A stretch of 64,000 nucleotides of DNA from Candidatus Poribacteria bacterium (lineage in GTDB: Bacteria; Poribacteria; WGA-4E; PCPOR2b), in contig OZ244587.1 in assembly GCA_965218095.1 (NCBI GenBank), forward strand, positions 4,736,001 through 4,800,000. Direction: 5' to 3'. Position numbers and translations under genes: made by a program. Below the pieces are notes generated by a model, which saw only the letters and a program-made list of their open reading frames with translations, searched no databases and had not been told where the DNA came from. Below, one piece after another: positions 2,899 through 48,036 of the stretch (position 1 is its first letter; the number at the start of each line of letters is the position of its first letter).

Positions 2899-2936
2899 AA
2901 TATTCTCCTTAAGTGGTTATGAATATCTTCCACGAT

Positions 2937-3024: not shown

Positions 3025-3076
3025 AAAACGTAAAAGGAAATAATTCAAACTTACTTAAAAACTGTGATCAGATTTC

Positions 3077-3239
3077 TATATGTAACCGTTAAAAATCTCA
3101 TACTGTGAAAATAGAATTCACGAAATATGGCACTCAAGAATCTGCTCATGTAGAAGTTTGTGCGAGTTTCTGAAGGATGTGAATTTAACAATTCGTTATC
3201 TTCGATTTCACATTGTCGCATTTTTTAACAGTTACTATA
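3077..3239. mobile_element. MITE-like non-coding element with imperfect terminal inverted repeats
   Basis: TATATGTAACCGTTAAAAA at 3077 versus TTTTTAACAGTTACTATA ending at 3239; inner pairs TGTGAAA/TTTCACA and AATTCAC/GTGAATT. Confidence 0.5.
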
Positions 3240-3455
3240 TGAAAAACCACGATTGGATTTCCACCTTCAACCTTTAACAGATGATACCATAAATTGAAGA
3301 AAAATCCTACCCAAAATTGGTGAAGACAGCGTTTTCACATTCTGCCTGCCTGGATGGGAACTCTAGCAGAAATATATCCGTTACTGACACGGGGGGTTTG
3401 ACTTAGAAAGGAAAGCTTTTGCGGGCAGAGACAGAACTCAGGAATTAAGATGGGG

Positions 3456-3732
3456 CCTGGTTGACTGACAAAAGTGGTTTGGGAGCAGACAGCCCGTGAC
3501 TTTTTGGCATATGGCTTGTCAAACAACAGAGAGGGCGAGCCCCGATAGGATCGGGATTCAGATTGCTCTGAATCCTCGATACTTCATCGGGAGCAATATG
3601 TGAGGAAGCGAGTCTGTGAGGTTCGCTCTTGCCTGCCTCCACGCTCCCTCGCCTCCATTTTCCACAACGCATGAGAAATCGGATAAAACGAGCTGTGACA
3701 TCGATCCGACCGAGTTTTGTCAGTCAATCAGG
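3456..3732. mobile_element. MITE-like element with 18-bp terminal inverted repeats
   Basis: CCTGGTTGACTGACAAAA (3456-3473) and TTTTGTCAGTCAATCAGG (3715-3732) are 17/18 complementary; internal hairpins; no credible ORF. Confidence 0.6.
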
Positions 3733-32398: not shown

Positions 32399-32728
32399 AT
32401 GATGGTAAATGTTCAGGTAGTGTATGGGTTGATACGGCGGGTTGTTTTTGGAATTGAGAGACTTCCAATAGGGCGCAGGAGACAATCTTTGGAGAATCAA
32501 GCCATCAACTTGTTTGTGGGATTACCGTGTCTTGCAATCCCAGAGGAAACTGCCGATTACTATGCACAGATGAAAAGGCAAGCGGAACAACAGGGTATAC
32601 CACTGTCTGATAACGACCTTTGGATAGCTACCACTGCGATGACACTCAATGCAATTCTTGTCACTTCTGATTCAGACTTTCAGCGGATTGCCGGATTCGA
32701 GTTACAGCTTGAGGATTGGACAAGTTGA
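32399..32728 (+). pseudogene. PIN-domain (VapC-like) protein lacking its N-terminal D-T-N/S motif
   Basis: GIPLSDNDLWIATTA...LVTSDSDFQRI...LEDW; no upstream antitoxin gene seen. Confidence 0.7.
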
Positions 32729-32773
32729 TGAAGGGAAGGTTTGTCTTTCGGGTGTAAGGAGGAACTGAAGGAA

Positions 32774-33745
32774 GTGCATCGCACATATCAGATGGCACGG
32801 ATTCTCAAAGTCGCAAGCCTTATCCGCCGTGACCCCAGAAAATGGAATCGCCCACGCCTCGCCCAAGAACTTCGCGTCAATAAAGCAACGATTTCGCGCT
32901 ACATCGGCGAACTGCGCGAGATGGGAATGCAGGTTATTTCACATGGGCGTGGCGGTTACGAAATCATTACCGATATTTTTCTGCCTGAACTTAACTTTGA
33001 TTGGGATGAAGCCCTTGGTCTGGTTACGGCAGCGAGTTTTTACAGGGCGAATGAAGGGCAACAGGCTCAAGGTACGCTTGACAGTGCCATCGCAAAAATT
33101 CGGACGAATCTACCCAAAGGTACTCAGCGCGTCCTGCAACAGATTGTTCCACAGATTGATGTTCCCGATTTTCAGGTGAGCCAGACCGATGAAAGTCAGC
33201 CGCAGCGCGAGACGCTATATGACGCGATTCGGGAACGCCTCAAAGTCAATATCGAATACAACTCCTTCAGCGGTGGAAAACGTAGGCGACATCGGCTTTC
33301 GCCCTATGCCGTCATGTTCCGCAAACGTGCCTGGTACGTCATTGGGCACTCTGAAACGTTCAATCGGATTCTGACCTTCCGCATCAACCGCATCCATTCC
33401 TTCTCTATCGGCCATACCCCCTACACGATTCCCGAGGATTTCTCTGTGCAGAGATACATGGAGAAAAGTTGGGATGTCATGCTCGGTCCGGAGACACACG
33501 TCGTCATCGAGTTCGCGCCACGCATCGCCCCGCTGATTCGAGAGGTGCGTTGGCATTCGACACAGCAGATACAGGAAAACGCTGATGGAGGACTTCGCTT
33601 TGAAGCCACAGTCGCAGGTTGGCTAGAAGTCGGCTGGTGGGTTTTGGGTTGGGGAGATGAGGCAGAAGTGATTGAACCGAGGGAATTGCGGGAGTGGGTC
33701 GCGCAGACGGCACGGAAGATGGTAAGGATGTATCGAAAAAATTAA
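32774..33745 (+). CDS. HTH-WYL-WCX transcriptional regulator associated with the type I-D locus
   Basis: HTH (LAQELRVNKATISRYI), LSPYAV...WYVIGH...TFRINRI, WVLGWGDEAEVIEP; start uncertain (GTG 32774 or ATG 32792). Confidence 0.92.
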   Translation: MHRTYQMARILKVASLIRRDPRKWNRPRLAQELRVNKATISRYIGELREMGMQVISHGRGGYEIITDIFLPELNFDWDEALGLVTAASFYRANEGQQAQGTLDSAIAKIRTNLPKGTQRVLQQIVPQIDVPDFQVSQTDESQPQRETLYDAIRERLKVNIEYNSFSGGKRRRHRLSPYAVMFRKRAWYVIGHSETFNRILTFRINRIHSFSIGHTPYTIPEDFSVQRYMEKSWDVMLGPETHVVIEFAPRIAPLIREVRWHSTQQIQENADGGLRFEATVAGWLEVGWWVLGWGDEAEVIEPRELREWVAQTARKMVRMYRKN

Positions 33746-34064: not shown

Positions 34065-35003
34065 ATGATGGCGACACAAAAAAGGAAGGCCTCACTTCAG
34101 AACGCACTTCGTGGGCGTTTTGCGAAAAAAGGGTCTGCAGAACTAAAGTCGGATTTAAAAGGGTTGTTTGATACGTTGAGTGGTTATGAGCTTGTGGATG
34201 CGGTTATCGGGCGTGTGCAGCGTTATGCGGTGGAGGCATCCGGTAAGACGGTAGATCACGATTTCAGTCGGATGGAATTGTATGAAGCAGACGAGATTAA
34301 AAGGGGAATCCGTGATGAGTTGGTTTGGCACGTTTCGTCCTTTGTCTCAGATGTGCATCGGGAGTTTATCGTCCAGTGTCATGCGTGGGGGGGGGCTACT
34401 TCCGAAGCGGCTTTGGAGTTGATGAAGACAGACAAGGCGATAAATCGATTGGCGCAAGAGGACGCGATGGGTTGGAACGAACTTCGAGAAACGTTGATTC
34501 ATCGGTTGGCGTATCTGAAGCCGGGTTCGTCTCGGTGGCCTGAAAAGAAGTACGGCTTGGCCTGGCGTGAAGCACGGGAGGAGTATAAACAGGCGTTGAG
34601 TGATATTCCGTTCACGTCTCGGGTGGAGCAGGTTGCGCTTTTAGCCAAACATGCTGAGCGAATTAACTATGAGCTGGATAATAGAATACATTCCGTGAAA
34701 GCTTTGCAAATGTTGACGAATTCGTTGGTAAAGACGGTAGAGAGTTTGCGGAAACTGTCGGCGGTTGATGAACAACAGATACCTGCGAATTTGTCTGCGC
34801 CTCAGCTTGTTGGGGTTCTGGAGCGGCTGACGCTTGCGCTGAGGGCGCCTGAGCAGAAGGCGATTGGCGGTGGGGCTGAGGAACTTGTTGGGGTTCTGGA
34901 GCGGTTAACGCTTGCGTTGAGGGCGCCTGAGCAGAAGGTGATTGGCAGTGGGGCGGAGGCTGTGCCTGCGGAGGCGGGTGGTGACGTGGGCGAGCCTGAG
35001 TGA
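34065..35003 (+). CDS. Hypothetical protein with a DUF2280-like (phage-related) central region and a 26-aa C-terminal duplication
   Basis: GGAGG RBS; REFIVQCHA...AWREAREEY...DIPF pattern; LVGVLERLTLALRAPEQK twice (78-bp period, 34806 and 34884). Confidence 0.6.
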   Translation: MMATQKRKASLQNALRGRFAKKGSAELKSDLKGLFDTLSGYELVDAVIGRVQRYAVEASGKTVDHDFSRMELYEADEIKRGIRDELVWHVSSFVSDVHREFIVQCHAWGGATSEAALELMKTDKAINRLAQEDAMGWNELRETLIHRLAYLKPGSSRWPEKKYGLAWREAREEYKQALSDIPFTSRVEQVALLAKHAERINYELDNRIHSVKALQMLTNSLVKTVESLRKLSAVDEQQIPANLSAPQLVGVLERLTLALRAPEQKAIGGGAEELVGVLERLTLALRAPEQKVIGSGAEAVPAEAGGDVGEPE

Positions 35004-35135
35004 AGTGACCTGAGTTGCCGCCTTAGATAAGACCAAGCGCAGAAACCGAGTTTTTAGATGAATAGACACGAGTTCGGCGGAAACGCCAACGATTTGCTCA
35101 GGTCTGGGTTCGTAGTAGCGCAATTCATTATACAA

Positions 35136-36359
35136 CTACGGCATGCTTGCAACGATATTTTGAACTTCCGTTTCTAATTCCAGGGTGATTTGCTGCGTGG
35201 TTTGTCTTTTCTCTTTTTTATAGGCTTCATAGGCATCCAGCAGATTTTGGGGCGTACCAATACGAACGAAAGCATCCAGGGGGCCTTTGGCTTTCGAGCG
35301 ACCAAAGACCTCCGCTTCAAGCCGTGTGATGACTTCCAGAAAGCGTTCTTGAGATGGATGTTCGCCGATGTACCCCTCGTAAATCGCAATAGAGTTGACA
35401 ATGCGGCGCAGGTCTGTGAAAAATTGTCGAAATTTGTCAAGGCGCTGTGTGTGAATCCCCTTCTCATATTTGGTCATCTCATCTACATCCCGGTAAATTT
35501 CCTCATTAATCTGGTTCTGAATGGCCCGAACTCGCCTTAGTGGATGCGAGTCTGGTTGAGGAACGATTCCCATGAAGTTCTCCATCTGTGACAGAATGTG
35601 TTCTTTCAACAGTTGAATTCGCTCATTAAGTGAACTATCTTCGCTCAGACGAAGTTGATATTCTTTCGCCAGCGTCATCAGCAGGCTCGCTCCCACATTC
35701 TTCACGCGGTCATACAATTCTGTAGGCGGATCGGTATGCTTAGGCAGGACGCTTTGTTCCAGATTCGTAAGTGCCTGCTCAATTTGACGCCACATATCTT
35801 TCTTGTAGATGTACTTTAGCCCGACAGGTACAAGATAGACAGGTTTGACATTACCCGCCTTTTCCATATCATTGAGTGCCCAGAATCCGAACTGTGCAAT
35901 GCCACTTTCAAACGGCATAATCGTCTCGTTCTGATGCGAGATTTCTCCTTCGCCGAAGATAACTAACTTCTGCTCCCCTTTGGTCAGCGTTTCTCGTGTC
36001 AGCCGAAACGAATCCCGGTCTACGGCGCCACGCACGATTGAATAGGCGCCAAGCCTAGTCATGAAAAATCCTCTCCATTTCCCCCCAGCTAACTGGTCAA
36101 AGGTCTCTCGTGCTGTCATATAGCGAAACCGCTCCCCACAGCGTTTTGACACCGCAAACATCACATGTGGGTCAGCGTGGGTTGGATGATTCGGCACGAG
36201 AATCGTTGAGAATCCATCAGTTGATTTCAGCCTATCGAGGGATGTTGCATCAATATCTAAATGTGAAACCTTCTGGGAAAGCCGCATGAGTAACGGTAAC
36301 ATCAACTTGACGGTCCCGATCACGATTGCATTCTCTTTGGGCGGTTTGAAATCTAGCAT
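35136..36359 (-). CDS. Phospholipid/glycerol acyltransferase (PlsC domain)
   Basis: NHPTHAD (HX4D), IFGEG, VPVGLKY; GGAG RBS before ATG 36359. Confidence 0.88.
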   Translation of the reverse strand: MLDFKPPKENAIVIGTVKLMLPLLMRLSQKVSHLDIDATSLDRLKSTDGFSTILVPNHPTHADPHVMFAVSKRCGERFRYMTARETFDQLAGGKWRGFFMTRLGAYSIVRGAVDRDSFRLTRETLTKGEQKLVIFGEGEISHQNETIMPFESGIAQFGFWALNDMEKAGNVKPVYLVPVGLKYIYKKDMWRQIEQALTNLEQSVLPKHTDPPTELYDRVKNVGASLLMTLAKEYQLRLSEDSSLNERIQLLKEHILSQMENFMGIVPQPDSHPLRRVRAIQNQINEEIYRDVDEMTKYEKGIHTQRLDKFRQFFTDLRRIVNSIAIYEGYIGEHPSQERFLEVITRLEAEVFGRSKAKGPLDAFVRIGTPQNLLDAYEAYKKEKRQTTQQITLELETEVQNIVASMP

Positions 36360-36519
36360 CCGATCACTCCAAAACTCGATTTCTCTGGGATAGGTAGCAA
36401 GTTTGATTATTTTAAACGATCTCGGAAACAATGTCAACCCGGAAATGCGGCGCCATGTTACCTCTGATTCCGTCCAATTCTTATCTTGTCAAGTATATCC
36501 GGGCTTCTAATGCGGAAAC

Positions 36520-36650
36520 GATTGGCGGGGAGGCTGAGGTTGTGCCTGTGAAGGTGGGTGGTGACGTGGGTGAGCCGGAGTGAAGTGATTGAACCGAAGG
36601 AATTGCGGGAGTGGGTCGCGGGGATAGCACGGAAGATGGTAACGGTGTAT
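36520..36650 (+). repeat. Chimeric duplicate of the 3' end of the 312-aa ORF fused to the 3' end of the WYL gene
   Basis: 36520-36588 resembles 34940-35008 and 36582-36650 resembles 33665-33733; joined at the shared GAAGTGA. Confidence 0.85.
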
Positions 36651-36676: not shown

Positions 36677-36705
36677 TTGACCAAAAGGGCCGGTTCTGCT
36701 ACCAT
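36677..36705 (+). promoter_or_regulatory. Promoter of the mini-CRISPR RNA
   Basis: TTGACC-17bp-TACCAT with extended TG. Confidence 0.6.
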
Positions 36706-36797
36706 AATGGCGAGAATCTCGATTACGAGATTGAAATATGGTTGTGTTATATTTTGCCCTAATTGTATGATAAGAATCTCGATTGCGAGATTGAAAT
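36701..36797 (+). CRISPR. Mini-CRISPR / crRNA-like RNA: two degenerate repeats around a 23-nt spacer
   Basis: AGAATCTCGATTACGAGATTGAAAT and ATGATAAGAATCTCGATTGCGAGATTGAAAT match the 3' part of the array repeat with the hairpin intact; spacer ATGGTTGTGTTATATTTTGCCCT (36738-36760). Confidence 0.9.
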
Positions 36798-36805
36798 ATT
36801 TTTAT

Positions 36806-36861
36806 TTGACTTGTTGGGTTGTCTATGTTATAATTAGTTTATTGTGATGGTAGTGTTATAT
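36806..36861 (+). promoter_or_regulatory. Strong sigma70-type promoter followed by the mini-CRISPR target site
   Basis: TTGACT-17bp-TGnTATAAT (36806-36834); GTG PAM at 36844-36846 then ATGGTAGTGTTATAT (36847-36861), 14/15 identical to the spacer 5' end. Confidence 0.8.
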
Positions 36862-36893
36862 ACTCAATTAGAATAAAAATACAAGGAAATCAA

Positions 36894-37133
36894 ATGCAAC
36901 CCTTAAATCCATCTCTGGAAATTCAAGCACATTTAAAAAAAATAGATCGGGAGCAGTCTTATATTGAAGATCGGCATTATGAGATTGGTCAGACTGTAAA
37001 TCTTTTAGAACGCGAGAATGCAGATTTACTTGATCGTTATAGCGATCTGGATTCGGCAAAGGAAATTTGCTACAGTGCACTCGCAGGCGACCCCGTCGCG
37101 ATTTGGGCGGAACTTCAGCGGTTCGGACTTTAA
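36894..37133 (+). CDS. Small acidic hypothetical protein (79 aa), candidate Cascade-repressed toxin
   Basis: AAGGA RBS, ATG start and its own consensus promoter; no family recognised. Confidence 0.7.
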   Translation: MQPLNPSLEIQAHLKKIDREQSYIEDRHYEIGQTVNLLERENADLLDRYSDLDSAKEICYSALAGDPVAIWAELQRFGL

Positions 37134-37221: not shown

Positions 37222-37272
37222 AAAAAAAGCAGGGCCTACATCCACCGCCAAGGATGGGTTCGGTCCTGCGCA
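37222..37272 (-). ncRNA. Candidate ~50-nt small RNA with a UUGGCG loop
   Basis: Minus-strand promoter TTGACC-17bp-TGCTATAAT (37306-37278); hairpin GCAGGACC...CAUCC-UUGGCGGU-GGAUG...GGCCCUGC followed by U7. Confidence 0.6.
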
Positions 37273-37438
37273 TCGTTATTATAGCATTCAACTCAAGATA
37301 GGTCAAATCCTTTTCAAAAGATTTTAACAAAAATGAGATTCGGCGAGATTTTTTTTGATTAGTTGCAGGTTTGTGCGACTGATCGTATGTTATCATGTTC
37401 TCGGTTACTGGAAAATCCGATGAAATGGAGGGTTTAGA

Positions 37439-39532
37439 GTGATTAAACTTAGAGTCAAACCTGTATACTCTCGAAAGGCGGAAGTTGTTCCCATCAAGAA
37501 CGGCCCCGAAGGGCTTGAGTTTCGACAACACCAAGTCGAAACCTATAAAGCGATTCAGGATCCAGATGTAGATGTGATCTTCAATAGGGCAATGACCGGT
37601 GATGGAAAAAGTTTAGCCGCGTATCTTCCCGCGCTGACGGAAGGCAGGTCAATCCTAGCTATGTACCCAACTAACGAATTAATCAAAGATCAAGAACGAC
37701 AAGTGCAGGGATACTGCCAGTGGTTTGAGCAAAATATTGCCTGCGACAAGATGTTTGGGGAACGGCTGTACAAACTTCGTGCAGAATTGACAGATCTACG
37801 CGGGCAAAAAGCCGCGATTGAACTTTTGGCTCTAAAGAATCCAATTCTACTCACAAATCCGGATATCTTTAATCTAATCGCCAATTTTCACTATCTGAAC
37901 CCCGAATATGAAAACCCAGATCAGTTGGTACAGCACATTATCGACTATTATGATCTGTTTATCTTCGACGAGTTTCATATCTATGATGTCTCGCAGGTCA
38001 TCTCTGTTCTGACAACCATGTTGTATTTCATCGAGCAGGGACGTGGCAAATTCAATCAGAAAAAGTTCGTCTTTCTCTCTGCGACACCGAGCCCACTCCT
38101 GCTGGATTGTTTGGAGAAGGTGAATCTCCGATACAAAATCATCGAAGGGTGTTATCAATTCGATGAACTGGATTCAGCGAATTGGGACGGAATCTGCGCG
38201 CCATTCGACTTACATTTCCACGCAACGGGTCGCCGTACCGAAGAATGGGTCGAAAACCATTATCAGCAAATCGCCGAGTGGTTTGCCGATAATCCGAATT
38301 CACGTGGGGCAATTATTGTCAACTCGGTTGCAGCGGCGAAACGAATTTCCTTGTTTCTCAAAGAACGAAACGTGGCGGGGGATTTTCCTCTGAACGTTGG
38401 CGAAAATACTGGACTCAGCAGTCGGGAAGAACGACGTTTTGCTCTCCACGAAAGTGACCTGCTCATCGGGACCTCAACGGTAGATGTCGGTGTTGACTTC
38501 AAAATCAACTTTCTTGTCTTTGAGGCGATAGACGCAGGTTCGTGGATTCAAAGGCTTGGACGGCTTGGTCGGCATTCAGAATACGCAACACCTGACGGGG
38601 CGGTTATGAAGTTTGACCGTTTCGTTGCTCACTCGCTTCTGCCCAAATACGTCTACGAACGGATTGAGCAAGTCGTCACGTCGGATTCAGAAATTGACAA
38701 AGGGACTCTGATTGACCTCATGCGAAGTGAGGATGAGAATAAACGGATTTTCTCTCCCATCAACGATTTTCGCAACTATAAAAAGTCTTGGGGTTGGTTG
38801 CACGCTTCGCATATCATCAACACTTTGGGGCATCCACGATTGCGCGAAAACTATGCACCCCAGCGAGAAAAACTCACGAAGGTCTATACCGACATTTTCG
38901 AGGCGGATATCGAAACGCGAGCAACAAAATGGTATTTCGCTGTTAAAAATAAACGGCCGGAAATCATTGATTCTGCTGTGATTCAATTTCGTGGTGAGAC
39001 ACCTTTCACATGTGGAATCATTGATGAAACAGATGGCGAGGTGAAAGACTACAATCTCCTGTGGACGTTAAGCAACGCCGAAGTCGAATTCATGGACAAG
39101 ACGGATTTCATGCAAGAAATCCAATCGCGGGGAATTCCACCCCGTCAGTTTCGGTCCGTTGGCATCTATCTCCGATTACATGGATATCGCTCAGAGCGAG
39201 AGCGTTTTCACCTGACTCAGAGCCGCAAGATTGGGAAGCAGTTTACTGACGAAGATTACCGTCAGTTGCATACGCTCAAGGGGTTTGAGATTGATGGTAA
39301 TTTTCCAGAAATTAACAAAATCAATCGTTGGTTGCGCATAAAACCGCATCTTTGCCTTGTTTGTAAAGAGCCGTTGGGTGATTTACGGCGGCTGTTACGT
39401 CTGCCGATGATGTTTTCCATTTTCTCGCTACTTGATCGGGATGGTAACGAATTCAGCGTCGTATTTTCAAAGGACGCGCTCTTGTTACATTCTCAGCCCT
39501 ACATTTGGGCGAAGGAGGATTCTAATGGCTGA
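37439..39532 (+). CDS. cas3: Type I-D CRISPR helicase Cas3' (no HD domain)
   Basis: AMTGDGKS, YPTNELIKDQ, DEFH, SAT, TSTVDVGVDF, QRLGRLGRH; GGAGG RBS with GTG start. Confidence 0.95.
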   Translation: MIKLRVKPVYSRKAEVVPIKNGPEGLEFRQHQVETYKAIQDPDVDVIFNRAMTGDGKSLAAYLPALTEGRSILAMYPTNELIKDQERQVQGYCQWFEQNIACDKMFGERLYKLRAELTDLRGQKAAIELLALKNPILLTNPDIFNLIANFHYLNPEYENPDQLVQHIIDYYDLFIFDEFHIYDVSQVISVLTTMLYFIEQGRGKFNQKKFVFLSATPSPLLLDCLEKVNLRYKIIEGCYQFDELDSANWDGICAPFDLHFHATGRRTEEWVENHYQQIAEWFADNPNSRGAIIVNSVAAAKRISLFLKERNVAGDFPLNVGENTGLSSREERRFALHESDLLIGTSTVDVGVDFKINFLVFEAIDAGSWIQRLGRLGRHSEYATPDGAVMKFDRFVAHSLLPKYVYERIEQVVTSDSEIDKGTLIDLMRSEDENKRIFSPINDFRNYKKSWGWLHASHIINTLGHPRLRENYAPQREKLTKVYTDIFEADIETRATKWYFAVKNKRPEIIDSAVIQFRGETPFTCGIIDETDGEVKDYNLLWTLSNAEVEFMDKTDFMQEIQSRGIPPRQFRSVGIYLRLHGYRSERERFHLTQSRKIGKQFTDEDYRQLHTLKGFEIDGNFPEINKINRWLRIKPHLCLVCKEPLGDLRRLLRLPMMFSIFSLLDRDGNEFSVVFSKDALLLHSQPYIWAKEDSNG

Positions 39533-42494
39533 ACAACCTCAACCTGATTTCCTGGGGATTTCAGAGAGTTCCCAAGAAACACAAGAAATCCACGCACAAA
39601 TCGCATTGCTGAAAAACGCCGTTGACCCAGACGATTTTGTCTTGACAGACTACGTCGAGACAGTTGTACCGCAGATGCTGGACGAATACACGCTCCGTTC
39701 AGCGAAAGGAAGCACGGTTTGGGCGTCCAATCACGACCAAAGTATGCTCGCGCATATTCTCAACGGCATCTTTCCAACGCTCACGATTGTGCGAATTGCC
39801 GGGCAACCGTTGAGTGAACTAGACGAGCGGCTCTACCTGATTGCCTATTCGTTTCATGACATTGACAAACTCATAGACATCCGTGATTTGAGTGTCTCTG
39901 ATGCGGAGAAGTCTGAGCAATTTTACAGCTACCTTGATGAATGGGTTGCGAAACTCCATTTTGATAAATTCTGTCCAGATTACGAAGATTACCGCGGAGA
40001 CATTGCATATCTCATTCTCAACACGCAGAAGAAATACGGTGCAAACCTCAATTTGCAGAGTTACGATTCGCGCCTACCGGGGCGACGACGCCAGTTTTTG
40101 CGGGAGATGTGTACCGCATCAGACCTTATCGCCTATTTTCTGAAGAATCCGAGTGGATTTCGAGAACAGGCGAATGCCCGTGAATCTCTCGTCAAGCTCA
40201 GCGGTGGGAAACTCGAATTCGCCTATCACAAACTCGCTGAGAATCGCGGTATGATTACGAATGTCATCAACAACGCCTTGCTCAGAATCCTGCGTGACCG
40301 ATTGGGATGGAAACCGTTTCTCTTCTTCCCAACAGGTGTCACATATTTGCGAAAGTGGTTAAGCGAAGAGAGCAACTTGCCGACACAGGATGAAATTGCC
40401 GAGGATGTTGAAAAACAGCTCATTGCATACTGCGCCGGGCGATTAGAGGCGAACCTCAACGGATTTACGCGAGATGGGAAGGGATTTAAGTTTCCCGATT
40501 ACTATTACGATTTCTTCCAACTTCCTGAACTACTCCAACTCATTCGCAAAGGATGCTTCAGGATACTGCACGAGAATAAGTCACCCTCTGCTGGGAAGCG
40601 ACTACAGAAGCTGCTTCAACTTCAGAAAAAAGGTGATATTCCCCCTGATGTCAATCTCCATTTTGAAGAGGATATGCGCGTTGACCAACTTGCGGAATAT
40701 CTCTACGAAATCGAGAAACACGTTGGCGCAATAACGAGCCGTGAGGCGGTATCTTCTGAGATTATCACGATTTTGGATACGCAAGAATATCAGACTGACT
40801 TTGAAGCGATTCCACGCGATAATCGGGCAGGCGGTGTGCCGCTACATTGGTATTTCCTCGCAGGCAAATACTTGATGAAAAATCTTGGGCTTGATGCGAA
40901 TCAGATGGAAGATTTGTTTGCAGACATTGCCAATCAGGTTGTGACAACATTCGAGGGAGAAATTGAACATCGCGAGGTGGAGAAGGAAGGGTTCAGTGTA
41001 CTCCGCGAATATGTTCGAGAAATTGTCGATATCAATGGACACAGTGAGATCGAACGCGACTTTGAAGCGGAATTGGACCGATACACAAACACGAAGAAAA
41101 AAGGGCGTGGCTCGAATGCGGGTTGTTCTCTCTGTTCGTCAACGTTTGAAACAAGCAAGCAACGAGACACGTCGGTCATCTTCGCCAACCAAGTCTACAG
41201 TAACAAGAACTTGCTCAACTCCTCATTGCTCGTCCGCGGCATCTGTGAATTGTGCGAGGTCGAAATGATGCTCCGACAAATCATGATACGCTCGAAATTG
41301 CGGCTCGTGGGCGGTGGGTATGATGACGTCAAAATCAAGTGGCTGTATCTCTATCCGAGCTACTTTTTCACGACAGAGACAGCGAAGTTTGTCGGCAACG
41401 CATATCGGCAGATGAAGAACTTGAATTTCTTTGACGTGCGGAAAGCGTTACACAAAGGAATGGCAGTGAGGGATTTCATCAATTTAGATGAAATGGTCAT
41501 TGACACCGAAATTCCGAACCCTGACGATGATTATCTGCTCAAGATGGAGTTCGACACCAACGACCTTGCAACCTTCTACTTCTGCGGAATCCCGACGCTC
41601 GGCAAAAGCCCCACCGATACAGAATCGTGGGCATTACCGACTTTTCTCGGTCTGCTTATGCCATTAGTGTTCAATGCGAAGGTCGTTGTGACCGAGTCGC
41701 AGATTCCACTCTATCACAGCAGCGAGGAGTGGAAAGAGACAGTTGTTCTCAATGCCCCCCATCCGTTTGTGAAGCACATTCTAGGCACAGTCGAAATCCG
41801 CATTGACCAGATCGAAGCGGCTTTGAAGAAGATTGTTGCTGCCTACGATATGAATATTGATGTATTCCAAAAGGATGGTAAACCGCAGTGGCAACACCTC
41901 AACGAAATTGGGCGGAACATTGACACAGACCCACTTTACGTTTTTCATTATCTCGAAGCGTTTCGCCGGAAGCAGGGTTGGGACAGTTTCCCCAAACCCC
42001 GTGATGGCGAATCATCAATCCCGGAACGATACATCCAAACTTATCACCATATTGGAGGTGACAAGATGAGTCTCATTGAAGAAGTCGCCAAACGGTGCTT
42101 CAAATTTTACGGACCCGATAACTTCAAGCCGAACAGTGTCTTGAAGGTGATTACGCTGGTTGAAGACGTGATTGTCAACAGCGAGTCGAAAATTAACGCA
42201 ACTGATCTAAAATACCAAGCCATTGGCGAGGTAAGTAACCTGATGCAACGGATTCGGTCAAGTCGTGCCCAAGGCTACGCTCGGCTCCACCCTAGAGATG
42301 AAGAACCATCAGCTATTCACGAATTTGTTGAATATTTTTATAACGTGGTGTTTGCTGAATATTACGATGGCGAGCGCGGTATGCTTCGTCAACGTCGCAA
42401 CCGCTTTAATGCGGGTGTCAACGCATGGTATCAGGTAAACTGGCGTCAATTCCAAACGAAAAAGGCAAAGGAGGAAAACAATGCCGACAATTGA
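39525..42494 (+). CDS. cas10d: Type I-D large subunit Cas10d/Csc3 with N-terminal HD nuclease
   Basis: DQSMLAHILNG...FHDIDK, CSLC/CELC zinc motif, LYLYPSYFFT; GGAGG RBS before ATG 39525. Confidence 0.93.
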   Translation: MAEQPQPDFLGISESSQETQEIHAQIALLKNAVDPDDFVLTDYVETVVPQMLDEYTLRSAKGSTVWASNHDQSMLAHILNGIFPTLTIVRIAGQPLSELDERLYLIAYSFHDIDKLIDIRDLSVSDAEKSEQFYSYLDEWVAKLHFDKFCPDYEDYRGDIAYLILNTQKKYGANLNLQSYDSRLPGRRRQFLREMCTASDLIAYFLKNPSGFREQANARESLVKLSGGKLEFAYHKLAENRGMITNVINNALLRILRDRLGWKPFLFFPTGVTYLRKWLSEESNLPTQDEIAEDVEKQLIAYCAGRLEANLNGFTRDGKGFKFPDYYYDFFQLPELLQLIRKGCFRILHENKSPSAGKRLQKLLQLQKKGDIPPDVNLHFEEDMRVDQLAEYLYEIEKHVGAITSREAVSSEIITILDTQEYQTDFEAIPRDNRAGGVPLHWYFLAGKYLMKNLGLDANQMEDLFADIANQVVTTFEGEIEHREVEKEGFSVLREYVREIVDINGHSEIERDFEAELDRYTNTKKKGRGSNAGCSLCSSTFETSKQRDTSVIFANQVYSNKNLLNSSLLVRGICELCEVEMMLRQIMIRSKLRLVGGGYDDVKIKWLYLYPSYFFTTETAKFVGNAYRQMKNLNFFDVRKALHKGMAVRDFINLDEMVIDTEIPNPDDDYLLKMEFDTNDLATFYFCGIPTLGKSPTDTESWALPTFLGLLMPLVFNAKVVVTESQIPLYHSSEEWKETVVLNAPHPFVKHILGTVEIRIDQIEAALKKIVAAYDMNIDVFQKDGKPQWQHLNEIGRNIDTDPLYVFHYLEAFRRKQGWDSFPKPRDGESSIPERYIQTYHHIGGDKMSLIEEVAKRCFKFYGPDNFKPNSVLKVITLVEDVIVNSESKINATDLKYQAIGEVSNLMQRIRSSRAQGYARLHPRDEEPSAIHEFVEYFYNVVFAEYYDGERGMLRQRRNRFNAGVNAWYQVNWRQFQTKKAKEENNADN
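42066..42494 (+). CDS. cas11d: Cas11d small subunit, translated in-frame from inside cas10d (142 aa)
   Basis: GGAGGTG at 42054-42060, 5 nt before in-frame ATG 42066. Confidence 0.75.
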   Translation: MSLIEEVAKRCFKFYGPDNFKPNSVLKVITLVEDVIVNSESKINATDLKYQAIGEVSNLMQRIRSSRAQGYARLHPRDEEPSAIHEFVEYFYNVVFAEYYDGERGMLRQRRNRFNAGVNAWYQVNWRQFQTKKAKEENNADN

Positions 42495-43488
42495 AATTCC
42501 GAAAGAGCTCGTTCCCGAAAATTATTTTTTGAATCGAATTCCGAAAGCCCCAACGGGGCGTTATGCACATCTGATTGTGGTTCGTGAAACAGAGTCGTTT
42601 CCCGTTTTTCAAACAGATGGCACGCTCAACATTGCCAAGGTCAAGGCAGGTTTGCAAAATGGCGATTCGCTCATACGCCTTGCGATGTTCAAGCGGAAAC
42701 AGAGTTCGCCAGAGCGACTTACTGGACGCGAATTGCTGAGAAGCACAGGCATTACACAGAATGAAGATGCCGGCGAAGATAACTACTGTGACTACAACGA
42801 GCAGTTCTGTACGACCTGCCCCGACTGCGTTTACTACGGGTTCGCAATCGGTGATTCTGGCTCTGAAAAATCAAAGGTGTATGTTGATACCGCCTATTCG
42901 ATTACAGGCTACGATGAGTCACATCAGCAGTTTTCATTCAACGCGCTGTATGAAAAAGGGAACATGAGTCAGCATGGCGAAGTTCGCTCTAGCTTTGGCG
43001 AACAAGACCACATCGTACCACAAGTTTTCTTTCCCTCTATCATTACCATTAAGGATGTGATGGTCAACAGTTTTGCCTACGTTTTGAACAACGTGCTACG
43101 AACGAAACGTTACGGCGCGCAGACGACACGAACCGGACGACTTGCCAATCATATCGTCGGAGCGGTATTTGCTGATGGTGAGATCTTTTCAAATCTTAAA
43201 TTCACGCAAGCCATCCACGATGCGTTGGGCAACGACAAGGACGAAACGCCGTTGAATCCTGAGAAAGTTTTTCAAACGGCTCGATTAACCACATCCGAGC
43301 TCTTGAAGGATGACGGTGTGAACTATCATCTACTTGAGGAAGAAAACCTGCAAGAGTTACTTGGCATCGTCAAGTCCGCGACAACGGATGAAGAAAAACT
43401 TCATCAACTTTTGCAGGAGGCAAACGCCGAGACGCAGGAATACTCCGAACGAGTGATTCAAAAGGCATCAAACAAAAAGAAAAAGTAG
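42481..43488 (+). CDS. cas7: Type I-D Cas7/Csc2
   Basis: FKRKQSSPERLTGRELLR, CPDCVYYGFAIG, RYGAQTTRTG. Confidence 0.95.
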   Translation: MPTIEIPKELVPENYFLNRIPKAPTGRYAHLIVVRETESFPVFQTDGTLNIAKVKAGLQNGDSLIRLAMFKRKQSSPERLTGRELLRSTGITQNEDAGEDNYCDYNEQFCTTCPDCVYYGFAIGDSGSEKSKVYVDTAYSITGYDESHQQFSFNALYEKGNMSQHGEVRSSFGEQDHIVPQVFFPSIITIKDVMVNSFAYVLNNVLRTKRYGAQTTRTGRLANHIVGAVFADGEIFSNLKFTQAIHDALGNDKDETPLNPEKVFQTARLTTSELLKDDGVNYHLLEEENLQELLGIVKSATTDEEKLHQLLQEANAETQEYSERVIQKASNKKKK

Positions 43489-43497
43489 GAGGGACCG

Positions 43498-44193
43498 ATG
43501 CAAGTCACGAGATGCCGCCTTATCCTGCACGACTCTCTCTACTACGCGACTCGTGAGATGGGGCGACTGTACGAGACGGAGAAGGTCATCCACAATTGGG
43601 CGTTGACGTATGCGCTCGGTTTGATTCAAAAGCCGTATAGATCATTTAACAGCGTTCCAACTTATCAGGAGGACCTCACACCAATCAATGCGGCAGGTGT
43701 CTATGTGACACCTGCCAAACCGATTCATTATGATTATATAATCAGTACCTTCAAATTCGCGGACAATCGACATCGCCCGTTTTCAACTGTCAGCAATACG
43801 CGAAAAAGGGAGTTGAAGATTACTGTGACGAACAAACCATCTTTCGGCAAGGCGAAGGAACTTGCGCCGGAGAGCGAGTTTGAATTTTTCATCATGGGTA
43901 AATTGCCCGAACGGGTCCCGAAGTGGATCCGGTTGGGATTGTGGATGAGCAAAGCAAAAATCGAAATCAAAGATCGTCAGGACTTGACCGTTCAACGGGG
44001 TCAATTTACATGTCCTCACTTGTTGAATCCGCTAGATCTTTCAATTCGGCCGCAACTCTATGATCTGATCTCGATGCCGCCGGTGAGTCTTCTTCAAAAT
44101 GTGACTTTGACAGGCGAGTACGTTGCGTTTCAGAGAGAGCAAGAAACAGTTTGTTTACCAGCCACAATGAGATATTTTGCAAACTCAACTTAG
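43498..44193 (+). CDS. cas5: Type I-D Cas5/Csc1
   Basis: LHDSLYYATREMGRLYET..IHNWALTYALG, KELAPES, WIRLGLWMSKA. Confidence 0.95.
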   Translation: MQVTRCRLILHDSLYYATREMGRLYETEKVIHNWALTYALGLIQKPYRSFNSVPTYQEDLTPINAAGVYVTPAKPIHYDYIISTFKFADNRHRPFSTVSNTRKRELKITVTNKPSFGKAKELAPESEFEFFIMGKLPERVPKWIRLGLWMSKAKIEIKDRQDLTVQRGQFTCPHLLNPLDLSIRPQLYDLISMPPVSLLQNVTLTGEYVAFQREQETVCLPATMRYFANST

Positions 44194-44204
44194 AAAAGTT
44201 CACC

Positions 44205-45050
44205 ATGCCCATCAGCACCGTTATCTACCTCATCCCCCCCGAAGATGTCACACTTCGTCCGACGATGGGGCATCACGCGCACGCTGCGTTCCTATCGCTG
44301 TTGCGAATTGGCAATCCGGAAAAAGCGGAAGAAATTCACGCCACATCCGCGCAGAAACCGTTTACTGTTTCGCCGCTGATTGGTAAAGGCGAACGACGTG
44401 GGGATTTCCTGCACATCCGCGCTGGAACGGAATGCTGGCTCCGCTTTACGTTCCTCGACGATGAACTCTTCGCCTACTTCGGCAACGCCTTCTTGACACA
44501 GCAACTGCCGTCCATCCGCATCGGACAGGCGATGTTTCAACTCAGCCGATTGAATTCATCTGGGACAGAGGGTAAAGATTGGAGCGGCGCAAGAACCTAC
44601 GAAGACCTAATTGAATCTGCGCGGACAGACACTCGGATTCAGATGCGATTCCATTCGCCGACCGCCTTTCGGGAACTGACTCCGCACGGGCGAAAAACAC
44701 GCAATCAAGCAAATATTGACCTGCAACGTTGCTATCAGAGTTGGGTCAACAAATGGAATGCCTTCGGACCGATGCAGATTGATAAGCAACGCCTTCTCGA
44801 TTTCGTGGTCGGTCACGCCGGGCTGACCACAGTTGAGGCCAAGAGCCGGATGCTCGATTTCGGCAGACATAAGGCGGTCGGATTTGTTGGAAATTGTGCA
44901 TACCAATTTTTCGTGAAGCGTCAATCCGATGATGAGGGTAACATTGAGATGTTACGTTTGGTGAACCTGCTCGCCGATTTCGCCTTTTACTGTGGCACCG
45001 GCTACAAAACGACGATGGGGATGGGACAGACGCGGCGACGACAATCCTGA
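44205..45050 (+). CDS. cas6: CRISPR endoribonuclease Cas6
   Basis: KPFTVSPL, FHSPTAF and Gly-rich loop GTGYKTTMGMG; start placed at ATG 44205. Confidence 0.95.
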   Translation: MPISTVIYLIPPEDVTLRPTMGHHAHAAFLSLLRIGNPEKAEEIHATSAQKPFTVSPLIGKGERRGDFLHIRAGTECWLRFTFLDDELFAYFGNAFLTQQLPSIRIGQAMFQLSRLNSSGTEGKDWSGARTYEDLIESARTDTRIQMRFHSPTAFRELTPHGRKTRNQANIDLQRCYQSWVNKWNAFGPMQIDKQRLLDFVVGHAGLTTVEAKSRMLDFGRHKAVGFVGNCAYQFFVKRQSDDEGNIEMLRLVNLLADFAFYCGTGYKTTMGMGQTRRRQS

Positions 45051-45410
45051 TCACGAGATTGACATCAGATCGACATCAAGTGCCTCGGCAATCGCCTTCA
45101 ACGTTTTGACGGAACCGGACTTTCGTCCTGTCTCAATCCCCGCTAAATATGCACGTTGAATGCCGGTTTTATCCGCAAGTTGCTTCTGTGTGAGTCCCCG
45201 GTACTCGCGATACACCTTGATCGGATTCTCCTCATTGAGAATCAGCCGATTAATCACCTCGCCGGGGAAGGTTTCCTCATCAATGGCTTTCGCCCTACGA
45301 AAATCACGAATGTCTCTAAGCATCTCCGCATCTGCAAGGAGTTGGTCGTAATGCTCTATCGGTACAAGGGCAAATTTCTGACCTTCTATTTCTACTGTTT
45401 CAAGGCTCAT
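45051..45410 (-). CDS. XRE-family HTH antitoxin (HigA-like)
   Basis: NPIKVYREYRGLTQKQLADKTGI.RAYLAGIETG; start overlaps the toxin stop codon. Confidence 0.88.
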   Translation of the reverse strand: MSLETVEIEGQKFALVPIEHYDQLLADAEMLRDIRDFRRAKAIDEETFPGEVINRLILNEENPIKVYREYRGLTQKQLADKTGIQRAYLAGIETGRKSGSVKTLKAIAEALDVDLMSIS

Positions 45411-45664
45411 TTATACACACCGCCTCTCGGTCCAATTTTTACGATTTCAAGTACAAAGGTGTCATCATGGAGTTCATACAGCACTCGCCAGTCACCCACT
45501 CTGAGCCGGTATCCCGGCTCACCTGTTAGGCGTGTTATATTATTGTTCGGCGCGTAAGGATTCTCAGCAAGTTGGTTAATCTTCCCAACAACGGTTTTCG
45601 CTACATTACTGGGCATCCGCTGGAGCATCTTCATCGCGCTTGCTCGATATCGAATCTGATACAT
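45407..45664 (-). CDS. RelE/ParE-family toxin (85 aa)
   Basis: YRLRVGDWRVLY, IGPRGGVYK; AAGGGG RBS before ATG 45664. Confidence 0.9.
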   Translation of the reverse strand: MYQIRYRASAMKMLQRMPSNVAKTVVGKINQLAENPYAPNNNITRLTGEPGYRLRVGDWRVLYELHDDTFVLEIVKIGPRGGVYK

Positions 45665-45749: not shown

Positions 45750-47432
45750 ATGTCCGAAACCTACATACCGCTTTCGCAGATAAACACCTATGTCTTCTGC
45801 CCGCGCCGATTCTACTACGAATCCGTTGAGGGCCATCAGGTGATTAACGAGCATGTCGAAGAGGGGAAGATCAAACACGCCCGCGTTGATACGGAGATGA
45901 AAGGTCGCAACGAGCGCGGGGTGAAGGTCTCGCGTCGACAATACCTCGCCTCTGATGCACTTGGTGTCTCCGGTTATCTCGATCTAATTGAAGAGAAGGA
46001 CGGTGTGCCGTATCCGGTCGAATACAAGAAAGCCGGCACCGGCAACTGGCTCAACGATCAGGTTCAACTCTGTCTACAAGGGATGCTAATCGAAGAGAGC
46101 ACTGGCATTGAGGCGCCTCACGGCTATATCTACTACATCGGCTCCAAACGCCGCCGAAAGGTGGTCTTTGATGACGAACTGCGGCAGACCAGTCTCGACT
46201 TTGTCTCTAACGCCGAATCGCTGTTGCAGACAAGAAAGATTCCCGAACCGGTCCACGACAACCGGTGTAACGGGTGTAGCGTCCGAGGCATCTGTCTTCC
46301 AGACGAGGTTGCCTATCTCCATGAATTAGACGATCGACCAAAACGCATCAAACCTGTGCTTGGGATCGATAACGTGCTGTATGTCGATGAAGCGGGCTGT
46401 ATACTCAAAAAAACTGGGGAACGCCTGCTCGTTGTCAAAGAGGGAGAAACCATCCGCGACATTCCGCTCATCCATCTCGGCCAGGTTGTGCTTTGTGGCA
46501 ACATCAGTGTGACGACCCCGGTGATGCAAACCCTGCTCAACGAGGGGATTCCGGTTGTTTACCTGTCTGCGTACGGACGCTATCAGGGAACGCTTACGCC
46601 GAAAATCTCCCGAAACTCACTCCTGCGCGTCGCTCAACATCGGATCGCGGATGACCCGGAAAAGTGCCTCGCGCTCGCGAAAGCGTTTGTACATGGCAAA
46701 ATCACGAACATGCGGATGATGCTCCAGCGTCGGAAATGGCGGAACAGAACGACCAACGACAAAGATCTCGATTGCGAAGTTGAAACAAACGGAATCGAAA
46801 CTGAGGACAGGCACGCCGACATTTTATCGAGCATTAAGGGACTCGCTGCGATGCGCCGGAAGATTCCCAAAGCGGAACGGCTCCCTGAACTGCTTGGTAT
46901 TGAAGGTAACGCCTCTGCCGCGTATTTCCAATCGTTTTCCGCCATGCTCAAACCAGAAATGGGATTTGACTTTGAACGCCGCTCCCGCCGACCACCCGCG
47001 GATGCGACCAATTCGTTGCTTAGTTTTGCCTACTCGCTATTGACAGCGGATCTGATTTCCGCCATCCAGCTTGTCGGACTCGACCCATACGTGGGGTTCT
47101 TCCATCAACAGAATTACGGGCGTCCCTGCCTCGCATTAGACCTCATGGAGGAGTTCCGTCCGATCATCGCCGATTCAGTTGTGATTACGCTCATCAACAA
47201 ACGGCAGATTAAACCGGATGACTTCACCCAATCGCACGGCGGCTGGTTCCTCAAAGACGCCGCCCGCAAGCGGTTCTACGCCGCCTACGAGGGACGCAAA
47301 AATGAGACGATTACACACCCTGTCTTCAAGTACAAAATCAACTTTCGCCGTGCAGTCGAATTACAGGTACGATTGCTTGCCAAGTGTCTAATGGGAGAGA
47401 TTGAAACCTACACGCCGCTGACAGTTCGATAG
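45750..47432 (+). CDS. cas1: Cas4-Cas1 fusion protein
   Basis: Cas4 part: FCPRRFY, VEYKK, QLCLQ, CNGCSVRGIC. Cas1 part: GIEG, NSLLSFAY, GFFH, DLMEEFR. Confidence 0.95.
   Translation: MSETYIPLSQINTYVFCPRRFYYESVEGHQVINEHVEEGKIKHARVDTEMKGRNERGVKVSRRQYLASDALGVSGYLDLIEEKDGVPYPVEYKKAGTGNWLNDQVQLCLQGMLIEESTGIEAPHGYIYYIGSKRRRKVVFDDELRQTSLDFVSNAESLLQTRKIPEPVHDNRCNGCSVRGICLPDEVAYLHELDDRPKRIKPVLGIDNVLYVDEAGCILKKTGERLLVVKEGETIRDIPLIHLGQVVLCGNISVTTPVMQTLLNEGIPVVYLSAYGRYQGTLTPKISRNSLLRVAQHRIADDPEKCLALAKAFVHGKITNMRMMLQRRKWRNRTTNDKDLDCEVETNGIETEDRHADILSSIKGLAAMRRKIPKAERLPELLGIEGNASAAYFQSFSAMLKPEMGFDFERRSRRPPADATNSLLSFAYSLLTADLISAIQLVGLDPYVGFFHQQNYGRPCLALDLMEEFRPIIADSVVITLINKRQIKPDDFTQSHGGWFLKDAARKRFYAAYEGRKNETITHPVFKYKINFRRAVELQVRLLAKCLMGEIETYTPLTVR
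46750..46786 (+). repeat. Degenerate full-length CRISPR repeat inside the cas1 coding sequence
   Basis: CGACCAACGACAAAGATCTCGATTGCGAAGTTGAAAC is 29/37 identical, ungapped, to the array consensus; 31/37 if trailer-variant bases C8 and G25 are counted. Confidence 0.8.
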
Positions 47433-47744
47433 CGGTTGTAGGGGCAATGCCTTGTGCTTGCCCATAGTAGAGGTGAGATTGAAACCTACACGCCGCTGAC
47501 AGTTCGATAGCGGTTGTAGGGGCAATGCCTTGTGCTTGCCCATAGTAGAGGTGAGATTGAAACCTACGCGCCACTGACAGTTCGATAGCGGTTGTAGGGG
47601 CAATGCCTTGTGCTTGCCCATAGTAGAGGTGAGATTGAAACCTACGCGCCACTGACGGTTCGATAGCGGTTGTAGGGGCAATGCCTTGTGCTTGCCCATA
47701 GTAGAGGTGAGATTGAAACCTACGCGCCACTGACGGTTCAATAG
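47397..47744 (+). repeat. 78-bp tandem repeat (4 full copies + 1 partial): cas1 3' end plus a REP palindrome
   Basis: Units start at 47397, 47475, 47553, 47631 and 47709; each full unit contains GTAGGGGCAATGCCTTGTGCTTGCCC. Confidence 0.95.
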
Positions 47745-47763
47745 GCTGTCGGAGGAGAAACCG

Positions 47764-48036
47764 ATGTTTTACGCAGTTGCCTATGATATTACCAATGACC
47801 GGCGGCGAAACGCAGTTGCCAAAATTTTGCTAGATTTCGGCACACGCATCCAATATAGTATATTTGAGTGCAACACCGATCGACGCGCTTACCTCCGGCT
47901 ACAAGATCGGCTTCAGGATGCCATCAATCCCAAGGAGGATGCTGTGACTTTCTATCATCTCTGCCGGTCCTGCGAGAAGGGGATCGAACGGATTGGTATC
48001 AAAAAAGGAATTGACAAAGCCGCGTATATCGTTTAG
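47764..48036 (+). CDS. cas2: CRISPR-associated endonuclease Cas2
   Basis: YAVAYDI.NDRRR, RIQYSIFEC, LCRSC; GGAGGAG RBS. Confidence 0.96.
   Translation: MFYAVAYDITNDRRRNAVAKILLDFGTRIQYSIFECNTDRRAYLRLQDRLQDAINPKEDAVTFYHLCRSCEKGIERIGIKKGIDKAAYIV

Follow-up and report, generated by a model that had tools for sequence, protein, structure and literature searches.

Gene regulation by CRISPR RNA (crRNA)-like RNAs has been shown experimentally for CRISPR-Cas systems of types I-B, I-C, I-E, I-F, II, and V-A, whereas for type I-D only computational predictions were found. In their main text, Shmakov et al. [quoted passage not shown] (2023). Our literature searches, which covered abstracts and running text, returned no experimental I-D case and no case from Poribacteria. 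Here, we analyze a stretch of 64,000 nucleotides (nt) from a Candidatus Poribacteria bacterium (assembly GCA_965218095.1, contig OZ244587.1, positions 4,736,001 to 4,800,000 of the forward strand; hereafter the window), in which a mini-array of two degenerate repeats and one short spacer stands ahead of a type I-D cas locus. An earlier note on this DNA had proposed that the mini-array guides Cascade (the CRISPR-associated antiviral defense complex) to the adjacent promoter and silences it. Comparison with related loci gives good support to a genuine regulatory mini-CRISPR, and the mini-array probably encodes a regulatory RNA that resembles a crRNA. Its function is probably the Cascade-guided, non-cleaving repression of a small open reading frame (ORF) that follows the promoter. 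The elements on which this reading depends are the following:

36677-36705, + strand: mini-array promoter TTGACC-17-TGcTACCAT (9/12 in a consensus scan, TG-extended)
36701-36737, + strand: psiR1, a degenerate repeat whose 3' 25 nt retain the hairpin TCTCG-ATTA-CGAGA and the handle ATTGAAAT
36738-36760, + strand: psi-spacer ATGGTTGTGTTATATTTTGCCCT, 23 nt
36761-36797, + strand: psiR2, a degenerate repeat with the hairpin TCTCG-ATTG-CGAGA
36806-36834, + strand: cargo-gene promoter TTGACT-17-TGtTATAAT (11/12 in the consensus scan, TG-extended), 8 nt past psiR2
36844-36869, + strand: protospacer-adjacent motif (PAM) GTG at 36844-36846 and protospacer, which matches psi-spacer positions 1-5 and 7-15 and is unpaired beyond
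36894-37133, + strand: cargo ORF of 79 amino acids (aa), an orphan with a coiled-coil-like translation, with an AAGGAA Shine-Dalgarno sequence 6 nt upstream
48269-52893, + strand: CRISPR array of 62 repeats of 37 nt, CGATCAATGATAAGAATCTCGATTACGAGATTGAAAC (copies at up to four mismatches)

Both promoters named in the earlier note were recovered by the consensus scan, and its two repeats with hairpin and handle, flanking a 23-nt spacer, have the coordinates and sequences that it gave. The hairpin TCTCG-N4-CGAGA and the handle ATTGAAA are present in psiR1 as in psiR2. The former agrees with the array repeat across repeat positions 13 to 36, and the latter from position 7 onward, except for one loop base and the last base. 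At 23 nt, the psi-spacer is shorter than the array spacers, as had been claimed: 60 of the 61 measure 35-43 nt, and the one gap of 66 nt probably contains a missed repeat. The hairpin-to-hairpin period is correspondingly 60 nt in the mini-array vs. 72-80 nt in the array. A genome-wide search for repeat-like sites outside the array, allowing three mismatches over 22 nt, found only psiR1, psiR2, and one 3-mismatch site 4.1 Mb away, and Rfam has no family matching at the mini-array, which lies about 640 nt upstream of cas3'. In related loci, a motif resembling TTGAC...TGnTAnCAT occupies the equivalent spot in most cases, judged by eye. The psiR1 hairpin is retained in all 12 loci compared, with a compensatory change from G-C to A-U in one relative (G057) and a G-U pair in another (G032). 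The stem of psiR2 is likewise preserved in relatives through compensatory changes from TCTCG/CGAGA to TCTCA/TGAGA, and its 3' handle decays.

The target sequence, ATGGTAGTGTTATAT, occupies 36847-36861 and departs from the psi-spacer at position 6, where T stands against A. It lies about 10 nt past the -10 box and 109 nt from its copy in the spacer, and 47 nt separate the first protospacer base from the start of the ORF. The earlier note had described this GTG-flanked match to spacer positions 1-5 and 7-15 just past a near-consensus promoter, exactly as found; it had also placed the target fifty nt past the second repeat, where a target does lie, the PAM in fact starting 46 nt past the end of psiR2. 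With any base admitted at position 6, the single-contig genome of 6.35 Mb holds precisely two copies of the 15-mer, namely the spacer and the target. GTN followed by a match to positions 1-5 and 7-11 occurs at one site genome-wide (36844), and a reversed control pattern also occurs once. Within the window, two matches at up to two mismatches were counted vs. a mean of 0.24 in shuffled sequence, a number that two of 100 shuffles reached. None of the array spacers has a match in the host genome other than in the array itself. A review of type I-D systems describes GTN as the PAM in Synechocystis, a seed made up of the initial 8-10 nt with position 6 left out, and a 5' handle of 8 nt (PMC10212523, as far as that text was available), rules with which the module agrees.

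Further evidence comes from the comparison of 12 loci (the window's own genome G000, G017, G024, G013, G008, G032, G036, G051, G126, G138, G110, and G057), in 11 of which guide and best target were extracted by script, G057 being added. The PAM is GTT in nine loci and GTG in three. Positions 1-5, 7-10, 13, and 14 are paired in every locus and position 11 in 11 of them, position 12 is paired in seven, and position 6 is paired in none, which agrees with the position-6 mismatch and the GTN PAM as first read. Pairing ends at about position 15 (paired in 7/12), positions 16-18 being paired in one to three loci. Type I Cascade flips out every sixth base of its guide and has a PAM-proximal seed, so that the phase of the observed pairing matches the way in which Cascade reads guides. 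Guide and target change jointly at eight positions (3, 4, 7, 8, 10, 11, 13, and 14). About five guide groups can be distinguished (ATGGTTGTGTTATAT, ATGATTTTGTTATG, ATAGTTGGGTTYATA, ATATTTGCGTCATAT, and ATGGTTGCGTYATAT), and cognate guide-target pairs score 12-13 out of 13 vs. 5-10 across groups. Spacer-target covariation in homologous loci had been set in advance as a comparison on which the proposal depended, and it was found in all 12, with the PAM retained. In G057, an insertion of about 2.5 kb, which carries methyltransferase-like and vsr-like ORFs (by eye from the translation), separates the mini-array from the promoter and target, and guide and target nevertheless both carry a private T-to-G change at position 10. 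Covariation kept across such a distance indicates that the relation works in trans and is no by-product of local duplication. As judged from these alignments, guide, PAM, and target have co-evolved.

Starting from the anatomy, the unique target, and the co-evolution, all of which come from sequence and its comparison, we infer a course of processing, loading, non-cleaving binding, and repression. Because the mini-array promoter takes the place of the 5' part of psiR1, transcription from it should begin several nucleotides ahead of the hairpin in psiR1. Cas6 would then cut at both hairpins and release an RNA composed of the 5' handle AUUGAAAU, the 23-nt guide, and the psiR2 hairpin, which would be loaded into the type I-D Cascade. 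The loaded complex would read GTG at 36844, close behind the -10 box of a strong promoter, and 14 of the first 15 guide positions would pair with the template strand, position 6 being flipped out. Being of the same sense as the mRNA, the guide could act on DNA alone, an RNA target being excluded. In the cargo transcript, the paired stretch would correspond to positions of about +6 to +20, where a bound Cascade would block RNA polymerase at initiation or promoter escape and keep the ORF off. Such pairing would be too short for a full R-loop, leaving Cascade bound without nuclease recruitment, and a guide about 14 nt shorter than the array spacers may yield a Cascade with fewer Cas7 subunits; short pairing and short guide alike should keep a full R-loop from forming and the nuclease from being licensed. 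Depletion or inhibition of Cascade would lead to expression of the cargo ORF. More tentatively, and with considerable doubt, the cargo could be a new kind of Cascade-gated effector confined to this repeat/Cas6 lineage, either a toxin or abortive-infection trigger or a feedback regulator, carried along with a guide of about 23 nt across three effector modules, one of them without a match among known Cas families. If so, this would be the first CrePA-like anti-anti-CRISPR module of type I-D, in which the short guide and the unpaired position 6 would act as built-in safeguards, the shortened Cascade being unable to license the nuclease.

The cargo ORF is a real gene, as its homologues and an excess of third-position differences attest: orthologue differences between G000 and G017 number 11, 7, and 20 by codon position. 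Homologues with 29-78% identity were found in 8 of 61 relatives' genomes with a single-protein query, and in 13 of 176 Poribacteria genomes with a profile, the own genome being counted each time. The protein is hydrophilic and acidic (isoelectric point 4.6, charge -7), acidity being common to most family members, and carries a conserved C-terminal motif, AGxPVxIWAELQRFG, invariant around IWAELQR. Tandem-duplicated single-chain forms also exist (G036, G051, P0010-P0012, P0016, and P0018). No match to the cargo was found in Pfam, NCBIfam, or PADLOC; all 13 alignment members, when scanned with Pfam, showed weak coiled-coil noise only, PHROGs yielded two weak matches (E 0.049 and 0.093), both to families whose function is unknown, and a profile search of the PDB returned only coiled-coil matches, with Rad50 as the best (E 0.013). 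The family is small. It comprises nine proteins, including the query, among 5.8 billion, and its profile matches 21 of 1.84 billion representatives at E ≤0.001, with no homologue in 50,697 phage records (tblastn) and none in IMG/VR. A metagenome scan recovered three cargo loci, of which one is a C-terminal fragment resembling that of G006; the other two are about 32% identical and lie on contigs of about 1 kb, where no repeat or target was recognized.

The fate of the module was scored in the 13 genomes that carry the cargo family. Ten have an intact ORF together with the mini-array, and none has an intact ORF without it. In G057, the mini-array is kept and a 5-nt deletion throws the C-terminal motif out of frame, as judged against the intact P0018. 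In G024, which also keeps the mini-array, a transposase-like sequence breaks the ORF near codon 75, where a contig ends; the translation of this sequence has a weak, sub-threshold match (E 0.0043) to the beginning of HTH_Tnp_1. In G006, the mini-array and the 5' two-thirds of the ORF were lost together. An addiction-type or otherwise costly cargo would produce such a pattern, but the genomes are few and are kin. By analogy with CreP or the CRISIS systems, the foremost conjecture, quite conceivable though short of probable, is that the cargo is a growth-arresting or defense-type protein set free upon Cascade failure.

The same design recurs with another cargo in five further I-D loci of Poribacteria (G156, G170, G154, G081, and G099), where an analogous mini-array, promoter, and target stand before a gene for a DUF3800 protein of about 200 aa, as in the following example:

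L040 (G156), 2640-3530: DUF3800 module; also present in L048, L050, L052, and L054

All five modules have a GTT or GTC PAM and leave positions 6 and 12 unpaired, and three of the five pair in full at positions 1-5 and 7-11. The DUF3800 cargo itself weakly matches the PADLOC candidate PDC-M04A (E 2.9e-4). These modules came from 20 I-D loci devoid of the small ORF that were scanned with a narrow regular expression, which detected repeat-like units in five and leaves the other 15 not shown to lack one. Since the DUF3800 modules follow the common design, this design appears to be general in these I-D loci, with an exchangeable cargo.

The mini-array and its cargo belong to a complete cas locus, whose genes were identified through Pfam and NCBIfam, the regulator gene through Pfam:

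32741-33745, + strand: HTH-WYL-WCX regulator gene, located directly upstream of the mini-array in relatives (synteny)
37439-39532, + strand: cas3'
39432-42494, + strand: cas10d
42481-43488, + strand: csc2/cas7
43498-44193, + strand: csc1/cas5
44151-45050, + strand: cas6
45750-47432, + strand: cas4-cas1 fusion
47764-48036, + strand: cas2

The gene set is that of type I-D (Cas10d/Csc3, Csc2/Cas7d, Csc1/Cas5d, a Cas3' helicase without HD domain, and Cas6), with matches to TIGR03174 (E 2.2e-120), TIGR03157 and PF18320 (2.6e-113), TIGR03159 (1.3e-57), TIGR03158 (5.7e-74), and Cas6 domains, and the subtype originally assigned to the locus is thereby borne out. In every full ORF-bearing locus, the order of genes is WYL regulator, mini-array, small ORF, effector genes, cas6, cas4/1, and cas2, and three effector variants occur within this frame. 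Variant A, cas3'-cas10d-csc2-csc1, is found in G000 and G032. Variant B, cas10d-csc2-csc1-cas3', is found in G017, G008, G051, G126, G138, and G110, and is 22-40% identical to A. Variant C was scanned in G013, where it lies between the small ORF and cas6 (L016, 3153-9818, - strand) and encodes Cas3' and proteins of 775, 318, 269, and 258 aa, these four without a Pfam or NCBIfam match; G036 and G057 resemble it by tblastn, with no Csc matches and cas3' at the end. Variant C shares the repeat family, Cas6, and the GTN-flanked regulatory target, and may be an unclassified type I variant. Across the effector variants, Cas6 is 59-83% and Cas4/1 73-94% identical, and the repeat hairpin and the mini-array are alike; the WYL gene is 62-69% identical across ORF-bearing loci.

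Several further features of the locus were observed. An ORF with a PIN domain lies immediately upstream of the WYL regulator gene (32399-32728). Between cas6 and cas4-cas1, a 133-aa ORF (45156-45557) without family match is 72% identical to one in the equivalent position in G017. The same genome contains a second, distant Csc2-like gene (G000:C1:3417267-3417941; E 3.9e-40), and several relatives have similar extra copies. Inside the cas4-cas1 coding region, a repeat-like sequence at 46760-46785 is identical to the 3' part of the repeat at 21 of 26 positions and ends with GTTGAAAC. Five tandem units of 78 nt, 79-100% alike, copy the 3' end of cas4-cas1 into the spacer between cas1 and cas2 (47394-47783); each opens with GAGATTGAAAC, which equals the last 11 nt of the repeat and also codes for the C-terminus of Cas1 (GEIETY...). 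The 130 nt before the mini-array promoter (36520-36650) consist of copies of two gene 3' ends, those of the ORF at 34065-35003 (86% identity, 34940-35008) and of the WYL gene at 32741-33745 (90%, 33665-33733). Given that the WYL gene abuts the mini-array in relatives, about 2.9 kb seem to have been inserted in the window; this apparent insert contains a 312-aa ORF without known identity and an acyltransferase gene (35136-36437, - strand).

Which gene the mini-array controls depends on what lies between the small ORF and cas3', where two elements were recognized:

37222-37306, - strand: antisense unit made of a promoter TTGACC-17-TGcTATAAT, about 8 nt, a hairpin GCAGGACC...GGCCCTGC, and a run of seven T
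37388-37396, + strand: extended -10 box TGtTATCAT some 40 nt ahead of cas3', probably the effector operon's own promoter (from the alignment of eight variant-A loci)

The 240 nt upstream of cas3' were aligned for eight variant-A loci, two with and six without the small ORF. A TG-extended -10 box, TGtTATCAT or TGgTATACT, is conserved before cas3' in all eight. Since cas3' has its own conserved -10 box with and without the ORF, the small ORF is indicated as the main target. Csc2 occurs in 68 of the 176 Poribacteria genomes and the small ORF in 13, which makes the mini-array and ORF look like an optional insert. The evidence therefore leans to the small ORF as the main target, with the effector operon probably touched only by read-through.

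The antisense unit occurs in 21 distinct copies in Poribacteria I-D loci, some of which lack the small ORF, and lies at one of two places, behind the WYL gene or immediately ahead of the first effector gene. It has an invariant GGYGGUGGAUGUAGG stretch, and the predicted RNA is about 50 nt long (37271 to 37222). It has no Rfam match and little covariation, and the folding of its hairpin is on a par with that of shuffled sequence (z -0.05). A dispersed repeat was rejected, the unit being single-copy in the genome, as was a peptide gene, the core being invariant at third codon positions in the 21 copies; in G126 and G138, the unit is read as the C-terminal tail of the WYL ORF. Another arrangement upstream of the small ORF was seen by eye in five loci (G013, G008, G036, G051, and G057; L008, L009, L011, L012, and L059), in which a near-consensus, TTGACA-17-TATACT-like promoter has a short hairpin and a T-run no more than about 8 nt behind it, and the target overlaps a second, weaker -10 box (TATAGT).

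Several points weigh against the reading of the module as Cascade-guided repression of a cargo gene. The 12 loci are kin and amount to about five guide groups, not to 12 independent trials. The last base of the handle is T in the window and varies among T, G, C, and A between loci. The GTG of the window falls outside the GTH PAM reported for Microcystis I-D in the accessible part of PMC10212523. Among the DUF3800 loci, the best site in G154 has a mismatch at seed position 2, so that activity need not be assumed for each of these modules. Acidic and soluble, the cargo shows no likeness to known toxin or defense families, which leaves a toxic role an analogy only. Lastly, no convincing + strand terminator was found between the small ORF and cas3', and repression could hence also reduce cas expression.

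This last point bears directly on an autoregulation of the CreR type, in which the promoter at 36806 would drive the whole operon, Cascade would feed back on it, and the small ORF would be merely the first cistron. CreR RNAs act in this way in I-B, I-E, and V-A, according to the portion consulted of 10.1101/2023.03.10.532045, and targets at the cas10d promoter are predicted in I-D in the main text of Shmakov et al. The small ORF is indeed always the first gene, co-oriented and directly ahead of the effector genes in all full loci examined, and the consensus scan found neither another + strand promoter of at least 9/12 from 36834 to cas3' nor a strong + strand terminator. However, the extended -10 box of cas3' is present in all eight variant-A loci, six of which have neither the small ORF nor such an upstream target, and the conserved antisense promoter-hairpin unit intervenes between ORF and cas3'. 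Moreover, in G081 the DUF3800 cargo and cas3' are separated by a WYL gene with the design unchanged, and the ORF is far rarer than Csc2 in the same 176 genomes. As the principal role of the module, autoregulation is unlikely, although it can coexist with the repression of a cargo gene.

A homeostatic regulator, quite unlikely in our estimate, would be a cargo that is neither a toxin nor a defense effector but acts, for example, as an anti-repressor of the WYL regulator or as a modulator of Cascade or Cas6, so that the loss of Cascade activity would feed back on cas expression by way of a protein. Such a role would suit an ORF that travels with the WYL gene, cas6, and cas4/1 while the effector module has been exchanged three times, and whose tandem-duplicated single-chain forms suggest a dimeric binding protein; the acidity of most family members points the same way. 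Against it, the cargo has no similarity to any regulator family, WYL genes also stand beside I-D loci without the ORF (G081), and the ORF is broken in 2 of the 12 loci with a mini-array, which is more in keeping with a costly gene than with a regulator that is needed. Non-functional debris, that is, a decayed array fragment or an off-target integration with a 14-nt likeness due to local duplication, finds some precedent in the repeat-like fragments elsewhere in the locus (46760-46785 and the 47394-47783 units) and in the view of many stand-alone repeats as sporadic in the main text of Shmakov et al., but is very improbable in light of the eight-position covariation and PAM retention in 12 loci from three families, its persistence in G057 despite the gap of about 2.5 kb, the maintenance of the promoter and both hairpins, a pairing phased as Cascade reads guides (position 6 never and position 12 often unpaired), and flanks that differ between loci, which argues against gene conversion of a larger block holding both sites.

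Cascade-guided repression of a cargo gene thus stays the preferred reading, and the locus with its 11 relatives offers a clean test case for type I-D, with a unique target, a defined PAM, a trans configuration (G057), and a cargo family confined to this context. The five guide groups with their matched targets represent natural compensatory mutants. Should the cargo be a toxin or a defense trigger, CRISPR "self-guarding" would then also cover I-D systems in uncultivated symbionts of sponges; should it be a regulator, a new layer of feedback would be added. In either case, guides of 23 nt could aid the design of non-cleaving I-D guides for CRISPR interference.

Among described systems, CrePA of the Acinetobacter baylyi I-F system (10.1101/2024.01.05.574328, compared here on the basis of part of that work) shares with our locus the succession of psiR1, psi-spacer, and psiR2, a partial PAM-flanked match that skips a sixth-multiple position at the promoter of a small gene (103 aa for CrePA, 79 aa here), and a cargo gene placed inside the cas locus and confined to that CRISPR subtype. 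The two differ in that CreP is a phage-derived KilAC-domain protein shown to be toxic, whereas the 79-aa ORF has no known domain or phage homologue, and in that CrePA uses a CC PAM and 19 paired positions in I-F, whereas GTN and 14 paired positions are used here in I-D. In CreTA of Haloarcula I-B and of Acinetobacter and Pseudomonas I-F, as presented in the passages at hand, a degenerate mini-CRISPR RNA similarly guides Cascade to a neighboring promoter and makes the cell Cascade-dependent. CreT toxins, however, are small RNAs, and the transcript controlled here codes for a conserved protein with a coding substitution pattern.

The CreR RNAs resemble the mini-array in being degenerate mini-CRISPR RNAs directed at a promoter that heads cas genes, and I-D candidates are mentioned in the same portion of that work. 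CreR hits the effector promoter directly and without cargo, whereas here a cargo ORF intervenes and cas3' keeps its own promoter. In the CRISIS systems of type I-C (10.1101/2024.12.27.630466, from the sections available), crRNA-like RNAs repress non-cas genes within the cas operon, and the cargo is freed when Cascade is blocked. The mismatches reported for these I-C RNAs affect positions 6 and 12 as well as the PAM-distal end (bioRxiv 2024.12.27.630466), as they do here. CRISIS relies on single repeat units processed by Cas5c, on targets upstream of the transcription start site, and on multi-domain defense enzymes as cargo; our locus, in contrast, has two repeats, a target just downstream of the -10 box, and a 79-aa cargo that matches 0 PADLOC families.

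The closest counterparts are the I-D mini-arrays of Shmakov et al., whose main text describes two repeat-like units in a conserved I-D position and a partial, seed-proximal, PAM-flanked match at the promoter of a non-cas gene upstream of or inside the cas operon, with the position-6 mismatch noted. Their cargo is variable and includes toxin-antitoxin and regulatory genes. The same main text mentions neither Poribacteria nor WYL nor a small protein, and a related locus may stand in the supplements. The earlier note had taken both the I-D instance and its cargo to be undescribed; the cargo family does appear undescribed, and the claim was too strong for the I-D instance, I-D cargo mini-arrays having been predicted in 2023. 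Relative to that prediction, what is new is the 79-aa cargo family, a spacer uniformly about 23 nt long, and covariation made explicit over 12 loci and three effector variants, along with a module that persists alongside three effector modules, one of them unclassified, and the natural compensatory and trans variants.

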